A stretch of 51,050 nucleotides of DNA from Anaerolineae bacterium (GTDB taxonomy: Bacteria > Chloroflexota > JAHJIN01): NCBI GenBank assembly GCA_034435155.1, contig DAOTYG010000346.1:1-51050 (forward strand), in the 5' to 3' direction. Made by a program: the position numbers and the translations under genes. Shown piece by piece: positions 46,649 to 50,591 of this stretch (positions are counted from its first letter, which is position 1; each line of letters starts with the position of its first letter). A model generated the notes under the pieces. That model did not search any database. It worked only from the letters and a program-made list of their open reading frames with translations, and had not been told where the DNA came from.

Positions 46649-47391
46649 GGTAGGGGAGCGTTCTGCGCGCGGCGAAGCCAGACCGTAAGGACTGGTCGAG
46701 AGCGCAGAAGTGAGAATGCCGGTATGAGTAGCGTAAGGCGAGTGATGAAACTCGTCCGCCGAAAGCCTAAGGTTTCCTGGGGAAGGTTAATCCGCCCAGG
46801 GTCAGCCGGTCCTAAGCCGAGGCCCACCGGCGTAGGCGATGGATAACTGGTGTATATTCCAGTGCCATGAGGCATCGTTTGAGCGATGGGGGGACGCGGA
46901 AGGGTAGGCTAGCGCATTACTGGATTTGCGTTCGATGCCTGTAGGGGGTGGACCCAGGCAAATCCGGGTCCATATCCAACCCTGAGGGGCAAAGTAGGCC
47001 TTCGGGCCATAAGTAGTCAATCCCAGGCCGTCAAGAAAAGCCTCTAGCAAGATGCCCTCGTGACCGTACCGCAAACCGCCACTGGTAGGTAGGTAGAGCA
47101 TACCCAGGCGATCGGGAGAACCCTCGTTAAGGAATTAGGCAAATTGACCCCGTAACTTCGGGAGAAGGGGTGCCCCGGTAGGGTGAAAGTACAAGTTGCT
47201 GGAGCCCGAGGGGGTCGCAGCGAACAGGCTCGGGCGACTGTTTAACAAAAACACAGGTCTCTGCTAAAGCGAAAGCTGATGTATAGGGGCTGACGCCTGC
47301 CCAGTGCCGGAAGGTTAAAGGGAGGGGTTAGCTTCCCTTTGGGGGAGCGAAGCTCTGAACTGAAGCCCCGGTGAACGGCGGCCGTAACTAT

Positions 47392-48174
47392 AGGCTGGAC
47401 CGCTGTAGTTACGCAAATAAACTCAGCCATATGCTGGAAACTCCGGTGTATCCTCTGGTACTCGCTCTGTAGAGAGCAGTGACAACCCAGGGGTGCGGAC
47501 GATCAGCAGGAAAGGCTTCACAGGAGGTGGGAAATGGCTCCAAACGTCAACCAGGTCCCACCAGACATCGGTCACTACCTGGCTGGTTTCGCAGATGGCG
47601 AAGGAAGCTTCAACGTCGTGTTTCGGCCACGCGAAGATTACCGGATGCCGTGGAAGGTCTCGCTGTGTTTCAACGTCTCGCAGAGAGACAAGGTGATTCT
47701 CAGCTTGTTCAAACGGCATTTGGGATGTGGTACGATACGACAGAGGCAGGATGGGGTGTGGTACTATGAGGTAAACAACCAACGCGCCATCCTGGAGAAC
47801 GTGATACCGTTTTTCGAGCGGTTCAGGTTCTTGTCGGCCAAGAAGAAGCGCGACTTTGCCAAGTTCAAGAAGATCGCCCGACTGATAGTAGAGGAACAAC
47901 ATCTGGATCAGGCGGGTATCCGGCAGATACTGGCGATCAGAGCAGGTATGAACGATGGTGGGGCCGGACGACGGAAGTACTCAGATGAGGACATCCTGAG
48001 CCGGTTTTCCAGTGAAGAATCCTCAGAGACCATACGCTGAGCGTTTCCTGAGCAATGTCAGGTGCCGCCGGTCTCAGGAGATGATGAGATGGTCCGATCT
48101 TCGCGGCGACGCGAAGGGTCTGCCGAACAGCAGACCGCATTGACCAAGAGCTCGATGGTCAGTGAAACGTGATG
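47392..48174 (+). ncRNA. Group I intron at 23S position 1917 (783 nt)
   Basis: Exons GTAACTAT^AACGGTCC; P1 CGTAACTAT/GTAGTTACG with U-G; P10 GGACCG/CGGTCC; core ATGCTGGAAA, ATCAGCAGG, TCAGAGAC, ATGGTCC; terminal G. Confidence 0.93.
47534..48040 (+). CDS. Single-motif LAGLIDADG homing endonuclease (L1917 intron)
   Basis: YLAGFADGEGSFNV, FNVSQ, GCG.I, K..DF.KF; SD ggaggt. Confidence 0.95.
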   Translation: MAPNVNQVPPDIGHYLAGFADGEGSFNVVFRPREDYRMPWKVSLCFNVSQRDKVILSLFKRHLGCGTIRQRQDGVWYYEVNNQRAILENVIPFFERFRFLSAKKKRDFAKFKKIARLIVEEQHLDQAGIRQILAIRAGMNDGGAGRRKYSDEDILSRFSSEESSETIR

Positions 48175-48188
48175 AACGGTCCTAAGGT

Positions 48189-48876
48189 GACAGTCGTTGC
48201 CTGCCCCGGCGGTAACGTCGGGGGCAATACCTGGCTGTATGCGGGAATACCCTTAGAGCCCGTCCTACTCGGGAGATGATCTCCCAGTAAAAATGGCCGG
48301 GATTGGGCAATCCGCAGGAAACCCTTTGGAAGGGGATCCTCAGAGACTACACGCCAGGCGTCCAGTGTGGAGGTATCTATGGACCTCTCCCCCGACTGGG
48401 TAGTCGGGTTCGTGGATGGGGAGGGATGCTTCTACGTGGGCATCAATCCCCACCGCGAAATGACGGTAGGATACCAGGTTTTGCCCGAGTTCCGTGTGGT
48501 CCAGCATGAGAGTGATGTCCAGGTGCTTTACGCCCTGAAGAGATTCTTTCGATGTGGCGTTGTCCGTCGCAATCGAGAGGATCGTTACGAACTGAGAATC
48601 CGCAAACTATCTTGTCTGCAAGAGGTGGTAGAGTTTTTCGAGCACCATCCCTTGAAGACGAAGAAGAATGTGGATTTCAAAAAGTTCGCCCGGATTGTGA
48701 GATGGATGAGCGAAAAACAGCATCTCACGCCGGAGGGGTTGATCAAAATCGCTGAAACATCACTTTCAATGAATCACGCGGACAAGGTCAAGACCCAGGA
48801 AATCCTGCAGCTGCTGAAACAGCAGTATGGACGAAGAGATAGTCCACCCCAGGCAGAAATGTCTGGATGATAGGTG
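48189..48876 (+). ncRNA. Group I intron at 23S position 1931 (688 nt)
   Basis: Exons CCTAAGGT^AGCGAAAT; P1 AGGT/GCCT; P10 TCGTT/AGCGA; core ATGCGGGAA, AATCCGCAGG, TCAGAGACTAC, GATAGTCC; terminal G. Confidence 0.93.
48379..48870 (+). CDS. Single-motif LAGLIDADG homing endonuclease (L1931 intron)
   Basis: WVVGFVDGEGCF, FRVVQH, L.TKK..DF.KF, HLT.EG; SD ggaggt. Confidence 0.95.
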   Translation: MDLSPDWVVGFVDGEGCFYVGINPHREMTVGYQVLPEFRVVQHESDVQVLYALKRFFRCGVVRRNREDRYELRIRKLSCLQEVVEFFEHHPLKTKKNVDFKKFARIVRWMSEKQHLTPEGLIKIAETSLSMNHADKVKTQEILQLLKQQYGRRDSPPQAEMSG

Positions 48877-48896
48877 AGCGAAATTCCTTGTCGGGT

Positions 48897-49589
48897 AAGT
48901 GTAAACGAGCCCGTATCGGCTAATAACGGTGAAGCCCTACCTCGTTGCGGTGCACAAGGACACCGTGCCAAAGAGAGGGTGATACCGTGGGAAGTCGTCC
49001 GCAAGGATTGACCCCGTAACGACTGAGGCGCAAGCCGAGGTGGTGTCTCCTGCCCCAGCGGGCAAATCTATGAGCGCCACAACACGCCGATATCTCTCCC
49101 GAGGAGTGAAGCCCATGGATATCAAGTCCTATCTAACCGGGTATGCCGATGGTGAGGGATGCTTCTGCGTCTCCATTAACAGAAGCCGCAGGCACGCTTT
49201 TGGCTGGGAGATAAGGCCAAGTTTTTCCATCAGCCAAAACCGTGACCGCGCAGAGGTATTGGAGATATACCAACGTCAGTTTGGTTGTGGGAGCATCCGC
49301 CCGGACAGATCGGACAAGACGCTCAAGTATGAGGTTCGGAGCGTGAGGGAGCTAGTGCAGCGGGTAATACCTCATTTCGAGGAGACTCCTCTACTGTCCG
49401 GGAAGCGTCATGACTTTGAGAGGTTTGCTGTTATCTGTAGGATGATGTATGAGAGGCAGCACCTCACGAGGGATGGTTTCGACCGGATTGTGGACCTGGC
49501 TTTTGAGATGAATCCATCGGGTAATAGAAAGTATGCCAGGAGAGAGATAAAGATATAGTCTGTGCCCCTGGTAACAGGGGGAGCACACG
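48897..49589 (+). ncRNA. Group I intron at 23S position 1951 (693 nt)
   Basis: Exons TGTCGGGT^AAGTTCCGAC; P1 CGGGT/GCCCG; core AACGACTGA and AAGATATAGTCT; terminal G. Confidence 0.9.
49115..49558 (+). CDS. Single-motif LAGLIDADG homing endonuclease (L1951 intron)
   Basis: [35 protein letters not shown]; SD gaggag. Confidence 0.95.
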
Positions 49590-50591
49590 AAGTTCCGACC
49601 CGCACGAACGGCGTAACGATCCGAGCACTGTCTCGACGAGGGACCCGGCGAAATTGAAGTACCCGTGAAGATGCGGGTTACCCACGGCAGGACAAAAAGA
49701 CCCCGTGGAGCTTTACTACAGCTTGGCATTGAGTTGGAATCTGGCTTGTGTAGGATAGGTGGGAGACTGGGAAGCTGGGGCGCCAGCCTCGGTGGAGTCG
49801 GCGTTGAAATACCACTCTGGTCAGATTTTGACCCTAACCGGCGACCGTGAATCCGGCGCTGGGACAGTGCCTGGTGGGTAGTTTGACTGGGGCGGTCGCC
49901 TCCCAAAAGGTAACGGAGGCGCCCAAAGGTTCCCTCAGGCTGAATGGAAACCAGCCAGAGAGTGTAAAGGCACAAGGGAGCTTGACTGCGAGACCCACAA
50001 GTCGAGCAGAGACGAAAGTCGGGCTTAGTGATCCTACGGTCCCGTGTGGAAGGGCCGTGGCTTAACGGATAAAAGCTACCCCGGGGATAACAGGCTTATC
50101 TTGCCCAAGAGTTCACATCGACGGCAAGGTTTGGCACCTCGATGTCGGCTCGTCGCATCCTGGGGCTGGAGTAGGTCCCAAGGGTTGGGCTGTTCGCCCA
50201 TTAAAGCGGCACGCGAGCTGGGTTCAGACCGTCGTGAGACAGGTCGGTCTCTATCCGCCGTGGGCGCAGGGGACTTGAGGGGAGTTGTCCACAGTACGAG
50301 AGGACCTGGATGAACAGACCTCTAGTGTGCCAGTTGTACCGCCAGGTGCATTGCTGGGTAGCTACGTCTGGAAGGGATAACCGCTGAAAGCATCTAAGTG
50401 GGAAGCCCCCCCCAAGATGAGGTCCCCCACCGGGTTAACCGGGTAAGACCGCAGGAAGAAGACCTGCTTGATAGGCGGCCAGTGTAAGCGCAGCAATGCG
50501 TTCAGCTTAGCCGTACTAATGGTCGAGGGCTTGTTCACGTTGAGCCAGCGACATTGAAGCTATGCACTCTATTCGACTGTCATAACAACCT

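Follow-up and report, generated by a model that had tools for sequence, protein, structure and literature searches.

Introduction

In the 23S rRNA gene of Coxiella burnetii, the intron insertion sites L1917 and L1951 are both filled. Raghavan et al. reportedly found in 2007 that the first of these introns, Cbu.L1917, has no open reading frame (ORF) and that both introns splice. Unlike the gene described here, C. burnetii has an empty L1931 site, and the exon between its two introns is 34 nt long. Cbu.L1951 is 720 nt in length and encodes a LAGLIDADG homing endonuclease (HE) of 157 aa (Table 1 in PMC1995217). A Coxiella endosymbiont in our own genome scan (L046) carried introns at L1917 and L1931.

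The large-subunit (LSU) introns of Synechococcus sp. C9 stand at L1917 (743 nt, HE of 181 aa), L1931 (666 nt, HE of 167 aa), and L2593 (Haugen et al. 2007, PMC1995217). Since L1917 and L1931 are both filled in that gene, the same 14-nt micro-exon as in our locus is implied. Other shared traits are single-motif LAGLIDADG HEs, ORFs that run from peripheral loops (P6 in L1917) into the ribozyme core, and the absence of P2, as in our introns 1 and 3; however, the host is a cyanobacterium, and its third intron occupies the distant L2593 site rather than L1951. Each Thermotoga species in Table 1 of the same paper is listed with one intron, compared to three in our gene. The L1917 intron of T. subterranea is 774 nt and encodes an HE of 168 aa, the length of our HE1, and Thermotoga L1931 introns are 698 to 700 nt with an HE of 162 aa (PMC1995217).

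For the CPR, Tsurumaki et al. (2024, PMC11270868) describe a predominance of LAGLIDADG_1 genes at 23S sites 23IS6 to 23IS8 (1917, 1931, and 1952), rRNA genes that are often multiply inserted (up to 16 insertions), and an enzyme from 23IS7 (1931 by the paper's listing order), I-ShaI, that cuts the DNA of its own insertion site and dimerizes. On that account, LAGLIDADG_1 genes occupy the same 23S sites as in our locus, in different hosts (CPR/Patescibacteria). Together, the Synechococcus and CPR papers place the components of the stack described here in the literature already: the single sites and the 14-nt exon are published, whereas the triple stacks present in public assemblies are not.

The window analyzed here (the whole stretch of DNA, 51,050 nt) contains a 23S rRNA gene with L1917, L1931, and L1951 all filled. 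Our analysis confirms that this gene is split by three group I introns, all of which contain an intact single-motif LAGLIDADG ORF, as the original prediction had proposed. We are highly confident in reading them as three separate mobile, self-splicing elements with homodimeric LAGLIDADG HEs of their own, lodged at insertion hot spots in helices 69 to 71 of an otherwise intact 23S gene.

Results and Discussion

Layout of the 23S rRNA gene

The 23S gene lies at positions 45327 to 50526 (like all features below, on the forward strand), with three introns of 783, 688, and 693 nt inside 35 nt, inserted after Escherichia coli U1917, U1931, and U1951. The introns span 47392 to 49589, correctly bracketed by the interval first predicted (47380 to 49610). 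In the annotated E. coli copy of 2,903 nt, the insertions follow 1916, 1930, and 1950, which equal U1917, U1931, and U1951 in the conventional 2,904-nt numbering; the known pseudouridines at 1911, 1915, and 1917 served as the check on that numbering.

When the spliced gene is aligned to E. coli 23S, the 5′ exon (45327 to 47391; Rfam LSU_rRNA_bacteria, 1591.7 bits) ends at U1917 in the helix 69 loop, where its last letters, up to position 47391, are GGCCGTAACTAT. The micro-exons, read directly and aligned to E. coli, are AACGGTCCTAAGGT (RNA AACGGUCCUAAGGU; 48175 to 48188; 14 nt, E. coli 1918 to 1931) and AGCGAAATTCCTTGTCGGGT (RNA AGCGAAAUUCCUUGUCGGGU; 48877 to 48896; 20 nt, E. coli 1932 to 1951), and both match the universal rRNA sequence exactly. 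The 3′ exon (49590 to 50526; Rfam LSU, 954.9 bits, model positions 2045 to 2912), aligned likewise, starts at A1952 and at its restart reads AAGTTCCGACC. Removal of the three introns in silico gives 58 nt, GGCGGCCGTAACTAT...GTTCCGACC, identical to E. coli 23S. The edges of the Rfam LSU matches at 47487 and 49657 are alignment artifacts, not exon boundaries.

The 23S exons make up a full-length bacterial LSU (Rfam model positions 15 to 2912), and the operon is complete, with 16S, two tRNAs, 23S, and 5S. Between the 16S-tRNA part and the 23S gene lies 1.74 kb with ORFs, a separation that could hint that this rRNA copy is decaying or silent and keeps its introns. We consider this highly improbable given the full-length exon scores, the universal micro-exons, the strong, near-consensus promoter-like site upstream of the 23S gene, and the 5S gene downstream. 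The intact ribozyme cores and three intact ORFs, the purifying selection on two of these, and the retention of the same stack in several divergent lineages, all described below, argue in the same direction. An intron-free working copy may exist elsewhere in the genome.

Three group I introns and their endonucleases

The predicted P1 helix with its U.G pair and the terminal G (48174, 48876, and 49589) could be read directly in all three introns. Among homologues, the terminal G is found in 98/101 L1917, 88/101 L1931, and 41/41 L1951 introns, and the guide motifs fall inside the first 60 nt in 94/101, 101/101, and 41/41, respectively. The predicted core elements are supported by Rfam model RF00028 in intron 2 and by pairing among homologues in introns 1 and 3; the RF00028 search that had been suggested as a check recovered intron 2 (62.3 bits, E = 1.7e-13, against a gathering score of 50) but left introns 1 (21.1 bits) and 3 (20.1 bits, for the 3′ part alone) below that score. 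P10 was visible in introns 1 and 2, as claimed, and is weak in intron 3.

Intron 1 (L1917; 47392 to 48174, 783 nt), delimited by direct reading and homologue alignment, is without P2. Its P1 joins GUAACUAU to GUAGUUAC (47405 to 47412) over 8 bp closed by U.G, and its P10 joins CGGUCC of micro-exon 1 to GGACCG (47397 to 47402) over 6 bp. The remaining helices are P3 (47422 to 47427/48036 to 48041), P4 (47433 to 47437/47503 to 47507), P6a (47516 to 47521/48012 to 48017), P7 (48028 to 48033/48089 to 48094), P8 (48045 to 48052/48073 to 48080), and P9 (from 48099). Across 31 homologues, pairing in the hand-drawn structure reached 86.8%, both partners had changed in 51 pairs, and P3, P7, and P9 were 100%, 94.6%, and 99% paired; none of 500 shuffles equaled the structure's value, and slid controls were 33 to 41% paired. 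The core of intron 1 has strong covariation support.

Intron 2 (L1931; 48189 to 48876, 688 nt) was delimited by RF00028 and direct reading; the model alignment placed the core, but its P1/P2 were misplaced into intron 1. P1 is only 4 bp, AGGU of micro-exon 1 with GCCU (48199 to 48202), closed by U.G, and P10 is 5 bp including a G.U, AGCGA of micro-exon 2 with UCGUU (48194 to 48198). A hairpin (48203 to 48225) is followed by P3 (48229 to 48235/48353 to 48358), P7 (about 48344 to 48350 with 48839 to 48844), and P9 (48850 to 48866).

Intron 3 (L1951; 48897 to 49589, 693 nt), also without P2, is supported by the RF00028 match to its 3′ part and by homologue alignment; two homologues align at both ends, one of 252 nt that lacks an ORF (L004) and one whose ORF is deleted (L144). 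Its P1 is 5 bp, CGGGU of micro-exon 2 with GCCCG (48909 to 48913), closed by U.G. P10 is just GUU/AAC (3 bp), compared to AAGUU/AACUU in most L1951 relatives; P10 is not obligatory across all group I introns. The core comprises P3 (48915 to 48920/49086 to 49091), P4 (48926 to 48931/48983 to 48988), P7 (GACU within 49020 to 49025 with AGUC within 49556 to 49561), P8 (49092 to 49098/49542 to 49548), and P9 (49565 to 49580), with additional, IA-like helices between P7 and P3′. Over 12 sequences, P3 was 85%, P4-P5 90%, P6 84%, P7 100%, and P9 96% paired, a level reached by 0/500 shuffles.

Each intron encodes a single-motif HE with one LAGLIDADG_1 stretch covering profile positions 1 to 101 or 2 to 101 of 102 (Pfam cutoff, 23.1 bits), preceded by a Shine-Dalgarno (SD)-like site, in agreement with the original prediction. 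HE1 (47534 to 48040, 168 aa; E = 3.3e-19, 70.1 bits) lies in the P6a loop, with its stop codon within P7/P3′ and its SD-like site, AGGAGGTG, at 47522 to 47529. HE2 (48379 to 48870, 163 aa; E = 1.2e-23, 84.4 bits; GGAGG at 48369 to 48373) lies in the P8 loop, and its frame runs through P8′, P7′, and P9 to a stop 6 nt before the 3′ splice site. HE3 (49115 to 49558, 147 aa; E = 4.3e-22, 79.4 bits; GAGGAG at 49101 to 49106) also lies in the P8 loop and stops in J8/7-P7′. Relatives in the PDB were found down to E = 2.6e-39 for HE1 and E = 7e-40 for HE3, while HE2 aligns gaplessly over 144 residues to 5gkk, a "putative homing endonuclease" (E = 4.7e-65), in an alignment that retains GFVDGEGCF. The LAGLIDADG helix ends in an acidic residue that binds metal in I-CreI and I-CeuI, and this residue is kept in all three (LAGFADGEG in HE1, VVGFVDGEG in HE2, and LTGYADGEG in HE3). 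Dimerization of HE1 to HE3 and cleavage of intron-less alleles are predicted by analogy with such enzymes.

In at least 8 loci, tblastn searches found each gene type in the intron of its own site: HE1-like genes at L1917, HE2-like genes at L1931, and HE3-like genes at L1951. HE1 shares 93% amino acid identity with the ORF in the L1917 intron of Chloroflexi HGW-1 (L119); this pair has a dN/dS of 0.08 and a dS of 0.37, and comparison of HE2 with L122 gave a dN/dS of 0.07; ratios of about 0.07 to 0.08 indicate strong purifying selection on both genes. Intron 1 is 90.8% identical to the HGW-1 intron, compared to 79 to 81% in the upstream and 88.5% in the downstream 23S flank. We count this excess over the flanks and the low dS of HE1 as evidence suggestive of mobility, along with a decayed member of the intron 3 lineage at L144. 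The Chloroflexota assignment of the window is consistent with its nearest named relatives. HE3 homologues occupy the same site in at least 14 loci at 43 to 55% identity, and none is close.

Proposed splicing and homing

The 14-nt exon had been expected to act both as the P10 partner of intron 1 and as the P1 partner of intron 2, and it does so through CGGUCC and AGGU; the ordered or competing splicing deduced from this sharing was not borne out. P10 of intron 1 takes C1920 to C1925 and P1 of intron 2 takes A1928 to U1931, and in the second micro-exon P10 of intron 2 takes A1932 to A1936 and P1 of intron 3 takes C1947 to U1951. Since P10 and P1 fall on separate nucleotides of each micro-exon, pairing imposes no splicing order. 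Simultaneous docking in two catalytic cores only 2 to 10 nt apart is probably sterically excluded, so we infer that removal is likely sequential.

We propose that the pre-rRNA transcript would carry all three introns and that a short guide in each ribozyme would locate the 5′ splice site of that intron by pairing with the last 4 to 8 exon nucleotides (P1, with the U.G wobble). After the first step, P10 would align the next exon, and the terminal G would complete ligation and restore the universal sequence. Because each micro-exon would serve its two introns through different nucleotides, removal in any order would be possible. Each HE would have its own ribosome-binding site for translation, located in the P6a loop in intron 1 and in the P8 loop in introns 2 and 3, and the 3′ ends of the HE genes overlap ribozyme core helices. 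HE dimers would then cut an intron-less target of ~22 bp, a size assumed from I-CreI-type enzymes, centered on their own site, and repair from an intron-bearing copy would spread the intron (homing).

Distribution and ancestry of the triple stack

We surveyed L1917-bearing species genomes (89 among the matches listed, 68 of them fully scorable) and metagenome loci (64 scorable). Introns at L1917, L1931, and L1951 proved widespread in recent genome-resolved assemblies, with many bacterial phyla represented. All three sites were filled in 7/68 fully scorable species genomes, plus 2 partly scorable ones, among the matches listed, and in 7/64 metagenome loci. The metagenome triples (L141, L182, L183, L186, L189, L190, and L195; about five lineages) encode homologues of all three HEs in the same order, at 57 to 78% (HE1), 62 to 76% (HE2), and 45 to 53% (HE3) identity to the window, and the micro-exons of L141, L182, L183, L186/L189, and L190/L195 are the same as in the window. 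Triples from the genome collection (L011, L051, L057, L058, L072, L088, and L110) also share these micro-exons and have at most one long intron each. The original prediction held triple occupancy to be uncommon and named a common occurrence in databases as refuting evidence; with 7 to 9 of 89 L1917 genomes among the matches listed and 7/64 metagenome loci, that claim was largely refuted. The triple stack is thus a fine case of a known type of selfish element, not a rarity.

This recurrence also bears on the notion of an assembly chimera, in which short reads joined strain alleles through the micro-exons and intron-mimicking flanks and no cell holds all three introns. The junction strings are indeed short, and many L1931 and L1951 alleles share ...GTG+AGCGAAATTCCTTGTCGGGT+AAGT. 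However, a separate 949-nt assembly (L121, SRR5216251), though perhaps not an independent one, matches intron 1, micro-exon 1, and the beginning of intron 2 exactly, and the same triple recurs on seven other metagenome contigs, as well as on long contigs or chromosomes in many genome-resolved assemblies, which makes a chimera very unlikely.

Whether the three introns travel together is a separate question. If the stack moved as a block, cleavage of an empty allele at any of the sites would be repaired from the triple allele and the stack would spread and persist as a unit, since a micro-exon of 14 to 20 bp is too short for strand invasion and all three introns would be copied together. It is established that homing co-converts flanking exon markers, metagenome triples (7/64) exceed the product of marginal frequencies (about 6%), and among the eight triple alleles with all HEs, HE distance matrices correlate with each other (r = 0.77 to 0.85) and with exon distances (r = 0.81 to 0.95). 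The correlation with exon distance is, however, equally well explained by vertical descent. Furthermore, occupancy in the genome set is near independent, with 10% triples observed against 38% × 29% = 11% expected (L1917-bearing genomes among the matches listed).

The nearest relatives also differ for each intron and have different occupancy patterns: L119 has L1917 only, L122 and L123 have L1931 only, and L144 has L1931 and the decayed L1951 intron. Compared to L141, the closest triple allele, HE1 and HE2 are 76 to 78% identical but HE3 only 53%, and one L1951 ribozyme has a P2 hairpin while the other lacks it, which places them in different subclasses. An intron 3 lineage unlike that of L141 and a different nearest neighbor for each intron mean that simple inheritance or movement as one block does not account for the stack, which is mosaic in its ancestry. 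The block co-conversion envisaged in the original prediction is mechanistically plausible, but on this evidence we think it unlikely to account for the stack. Separate mobile introns remain our preferred reading; the spacings of 14 and 20 bp do exceed the 11-bp half-site, as had been pointed out, and near-independent occupancy fits sites that can be invaded beside filled neighbors.

Implications

Excised intron RNAs in Coxiella have reportedly been proposed to slow growth by binding ribosomes. It is conceivable, but very unlikely, that excised introns act in this way here or that sequential removal from helices 69 to 71, in the region of intersubunit bridge B2a, serves as a timing or quality checkpoint in assembly of the 50S subunit. 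If true, either role could explain why the triple and all three HEs have been kept across several deeply divergent lineages, with HE divergence tracking host divergence.

On its own, the stack in this window matters little, and the survey is the more useful by-product. Stacking is routine, at about 10% of intron-bearing alleles, which corrects the older view of bacterial rRNA introns as curiosities, and the prevalence of introns is relevant wherever rRNA gene callers or amplicon primers take an uninterrupted 23S gene for granted. What the window adds is a well-preserved bacterial case outside the CPR, in which three introns with intact HEs crowd the best-conserved part of 23S rRNA at spacings of 14 and 20 nt. 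The locus is a convenient natural substrate for studying how neighboring ribozymes share a micro-exon, whether LAGLIDADG targets survive beside filled sites, and whether such introns move as a block.

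Group I introns at positions 1917, 1931, and 1951 of the 23S rRNA gene

Three group I introns interrupt the 23S rRNA gene of the window and were located by anchoring universal exon strings and then re-reading the letters. The 5′ exon ends at 47391 (...GGCCGTAACTAT) and is followed by intron 1 (47392-48174, 783 nt), a 14-nt micro-exon (AACGGTCCTAAGGT, 48175-48188), intron 2 (48189-48876, 688 nt), a 20-nt micro-exon (AGCGAAATTCCTTGTCGGGT, 48877-48896), and intron 3 (48897-49589, 693 nt), with the 3′ exon starting at 49590 (AAGTTCCGACC). Boundaries were taken from these anchors and not from Rfam, which returned the 23S gene as two matches separated by a gap of ~2.2 kb with a single group I intron called inside it, since Rfam wrongly places P1/P2 of intron 2 in the end of intron 1. 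The spliced sequence (3036 nt) aligns over its full length with E. coli 23S rRNA, with complete identity across the splice junctions, which fall after positions 1916, 1930, and 1950 of the 2903-nt annotated E. coli copy. Calibrated against the pseudouridines known in the helix 69 loop, these junctions correspond to U1917, U1931, and U1951 when E. coli 23S is numbered conventionally (2904 nt). The insertion sites (L1917, L1931, and L1951) and micro-exon lengths named in the original prediction were thus correct. A twintron (an intron within an intron) was ruled out because both micro-exons are exact rRNA sequence; given the group I cores and splice-site pairings, RNase III-type intervening sequences were discarded as well.

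Each 5′ splice site is preceded by a U able to form a pair with a G in the internal guide, and each intron ends in a G. P1 pairs exon and guide as GUAACUAU/GUAGUUAC in intron 1, AGGU/GCCU in intron 2, and CGGGU/GCCCG in intron 3. As anticipated, P10 is clear in introns 1 (CGGUCC/GGACCG) and 2 (AGCGA/UCGUU); in intron 3 it comprises only GUU/AAC, versus AAGUU/AACUU in most L1951 relatives. Comparison with the Rfam group I model RF00028 gave a divided answer. Intron 2 exceeded the gathering score (62.3 versus 50 bits), in an alignment that covers P3-P9 and leaves a 490-nt insertion in the P8 loop, and the L1931 intron of L141, the closest triple relative (a triple being an allele with all three sites filled), scored 55.7 bits. 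Introns 1 and 3 fell below it at 21.1 and 20.1 bits, the latter match confined to the P7′/P9 end; Rfam alone validates neither, and their cores are supported by homologue alignments.

Given the low Rfam score of intron 1, we drew its structure by hand (P3, P4, P5, P5a/b, P6, P6a, P7, P8, P9, P9.1, and P9.2) and evaluated it on the window copy, stripped of its ORF loop, together with 30 L1917 homologues lacking an ORF. Overall, 86.8% of cells were paired (P3, 100%; P7, 94.6%; P9, 99%) and 51 of 71 pairs had changed on both sides; no measure was reached by any of 500 shuffles, and slid controls were 33 to 41% paired. The ribozyme of intron 3 is defined by its close relatives, a clean 252-nt ORF-less intron (L004) and three copies with an internally deleted ORF (L144, L146, and L148), and its structure was derived from an alignment restricted to its subclass and from the 252-nt minimal homologue. 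Across the 12 sequences used for the pairing test, the core helices P3, P4-P5, P6, P7, and P9 were 84 to 100% paired, which 0 of 500 shuffles matched; peripheral helices aligned poorly. Intron 3 has two additional, IA-like hairpins between P7 and P3′ and no P2. An RNAalifold structure across all 38 L1951 introns was discarded as muddled, since these mix several ribozyme subclasses.

A 26-nt J6/7-P7-P3′ block is common to introns 1 and 2 (81% identity; 48019-48044 and 48336-48361), in agreement with the likeness of L1917 and L1931 introns noted previously (PMC1995217). Furthermore, one class of L1931 introns (GCCUUAGUAAAA..GGCUAUAUGCUGG; L001, L006, L012, L046, L047, L058, and others) has a P3-J3/4-P4 core nearly that of the main L1917 class. 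These likenesses fit a single ribozyme lineage that passed from one site to another 14 nt away through a changed guide sequence. The anatomy of the introns is textbook, and the observation that led to this analysis was accurate.

It had also been proposed that the 14-nt exon, shared by adjacent introns, imposes ordered or competing splicing. Pairing forces neither, since the nucleotides involved are disjoint: in the first micro-exon, P10 of intron 1 uses 1920-1925 and P1 of intron 2 uses 1928-1931, and in the second, P10 of intron 2 uses 1932-1936 and P1 of intron 3 uses 1947-1951. Simultaneous docking by two catalytic cores of helices 2 to 10 nt apart would be sterically unlikely, so we would expect the introns to be removed sequentially, in either order. 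If intron 2 left first, the L1917 and L1951 introns would be separated by a 34-nt exon, an arrangement that we take to be that of Coxiella; Raghavan et al. reportedly described in 2007 an L1917 intron in C. burnetii as well.

Homing endonuclease genes

As predicted, each intron holds an intact endonuclease ORF (HE1, 168 amino acids [aa]; HE2, 163 aa; HE3, 147 aa, in introns 1, 2, and 3) with one Pfam LAGLIDADG_1 domain, the motif G(F/Y)xDGEG, and a Shine-Dalgarno sequence 5 to 8 nt upstream. The three are 32 to 39% identical to one another and strongly match solved LAGLIDADG enzymes (HE2 against PDB 5gkk, E = 4.7e-65; a literature search found no publication on this structure). HE1 occupies the P6a loop, with its stop codon inside P7/P3′. 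The other two occupy the P8 loops of their introns: HE2 continues through P8′, P7′, and P9 to a stop 6 nt short of the splice site, and HE3 ends in J8/7-P7′. Such overlap of ORF and ribozyme core is of the same kind as in Synechococcus introns (PMC1995217).

HE1 and HE2 are under strong purifying selection: HE1 compared with its homologue in Chloroflexi bacterium HGW-Chloroflexi-1 (L119) has a dN/dS of 0.08 at a dS of 0.37 (93% amino acid identity), and HE2 compared with that of L122, an L1931-only allele, has a dN/dS of 0.07. HE3 has no close relative for comparison. L1951 introns of the intron 3 lineage (L144:4519-4899, also L146 and L148) carry an endonuclease gene internally deleted by ~310 nt, of which about the first 70 and last 55 nt remain. 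The window, these decayed copies, and L004 together show the stages of a cycle of homing endonuclease gain, decay, and loss.

The rRNA operon

The operon at the window end comprises 16S (41658-43193), tRNA-Ile, tRNA-Ala, 23S (from 45327), and 5S (50593-50708). Its 16S-tRNA-Ile-tRNA-Ala and 23S-5S halves are separated by 1.74 kb (43588-45326) containing two + strand ORFs, one encoding a Cys-rich 99-aa protein with a hydrophobic N terminus (43641-43940; no match in Pfam) and the other a 305-aa protein with a weak, sub-threshold match to Peptidase_MA_2 (44058-44975; E = 1.6e-4). Directly upstream of 23S is a promoter-like, near-consensus site (TTGACA-17-TATACT, 45012-45040). Given this site and the 1.74-kb gap, the two halves may be transcribed separately. 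That this 23S gene is a silent or decaying copy we consider unlikely, because exons, ribozyme cores, and ORFs are intact, two of the ORFs are under selection, and the gene has the near-consensus promoter-like site upstream and a 5S gene downstream.

Relative to E. coli, the 23S gene has two insertions, one of 84 nt near position 286 (about 45587-45671) and one of 62 nt near position 1166 (about 46569-46631); a 16-nt tandem repeat at 46608-46639 (ACCAATTTACCAGACT/ACCAATTTACCAATGT) is assigned to the latter. Both represent expansion segments or IVS-like helices rather than introns. Elsewhere, the upstream part of the window holds a selenocysteine tRNA gene (11568-11663; Rfam tRNA-Sec, 71.2 bits).

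Frequency of triple occupancy

Parts of the stack, namely single sites and the L1917-L1931 pair with endonuclease genes, are already published. Synechococcus C9 has L1917 and L1931 introns with endonuclease genes, and Coxiella has an L1951 intron with one (PMC1995217). In CPR bacteria, 1917, 1931, and 1952 are frequent LAGLIDADG_1 sites, a single gene can carry as many as 16 insertions, and I-ShaI, at site 23IS7, is an active dimeric enzyme (PMC11270868). A literature search for organellar genes occupied at all three sites turned up nothing usable, and no site tables were found in the supplement of PMC11270868.

We scanned one genome per species with G+AACGGTCCTAAGGT, the signature of an L1917 intron ending in G, and obtained at least 120 loci; 89 among the matches listed were 23S genes from many phyla. 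Genomes with L1917 introns among these matches bore labels including Actinomycetota/Solirubrobacterales, Gamma- and Betaproteobacteria, Dormibacterota, Acidobacteriota, Nitrospirota, Gemmatimonadota, CPR groups, Omnitrophota, Bacteroidota, and a Coxiella endosymbiont. Chance matches numbered 31 among those listed, compared to about 1,110 expected overall, which by rough extrapolation suggests a few thousand L1917-bearing species. At the 68 listed loci scorable at all three sites, 29 had L1917 only, 19 also had L1931, 13 also had L1951, and 7 were triples; two further probable triples among the matches listed were cut by locus ends. The listed triples were labeled Solirubrobacterales, Gammaproteobacteria, Gemmatimonadota, Longimicrobiales, and Actinomycetota, and had at most one intron per allele long enough for an endonuclease gene; more than one long intron was seen in 0/19 listed L1917-L1931 doubles and 3/13 L1917-L1951 doubles.

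A metagenome search with HE2 returned 80 loci, 64 of them scorable: L1931 was alone in 40, with L1917 in 10, with L1951 in 7, and part of a triple in 7. HE1-, HE2-, and HE3-like genes occur in the same order (tblastn) in L141, L182, L183, L186, L189, L190, and L195, which amount to about five distinct alleles; the 23S 3′ domains of these are 13 to 24% apart from each other and from the window. Recurring in both genomes and metagenomes, triples are not rare, nor are triples with three endonuclease genes, which largely overturns the expectation that triple occupancy is uncommon. An assembly chimera joined through the short micro-exons is highly improbable, as a separate 949-nt assembly (from a contig search with HE1) has exactly the same intron 1/micro-exon/intron 2 junction and the same arrangement occurs in many other assemblies.

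Homing and ancestry of the stack

The proposal that each site can be homed into beside filled neighbors gained support. Assumed 22-bp targets centered on the insertion sites each fit wholly within flanking exon and micro-exon, with margins of 3 to 9 bp. Among listed L1917 genomes, triples are expected at 11% (38% × 29%) and observed at 10%, and this near-independent occupancy supports independent homing at each site. Co-conversion of the whole block, also proposed earlier, would be expected mechanistically, since strand invasion needs more than 14 to 20 bp, and correlated endonuclease distances among triple alleles are compatible with it. However, endonuclease distances correlate at least as highly with exon distance (r = 0.81 to 0.95), which fits vertical descent, and the window stack itself is a mosaic: the nearest relative of intron 1 is in L119, an L1917-only allele (90.8%), those of intron 2 are in the L1931-only alleles L122 and L123 (about 84 to 85%), and that of intron 3 is the decayed L144 copy (84% over the first 283 nt), and HE3 is only 53% identical to its L141 counterpart, compared to 76 to 78% for HE1 and HE2.

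The closest named relatives of the 23S gene and introns are two Chloroflexi assemblies. In HGW-Chloroflexi-1, whose genome has neither L1931 nor L1951 introns, the L1917 intron (L119:611-1395) is 90.8% identical to intron 1, while the flanking 23S sequence is 79 to 81% identical upstream and 88.5% downstream. That the intron is closer than its flanking rRNA suggests horizontal transfer of intron 1 alone, later than the host split. Altogether, the stack is a fresh, well-preserved case of LAGLIDADG-bearing mobile group I introns at the 1917, 1931, and 1951 hot spots of 23S rRNA, and offers a clean natural substrate for studying micro-exon sharing and homing beside occupied sites.
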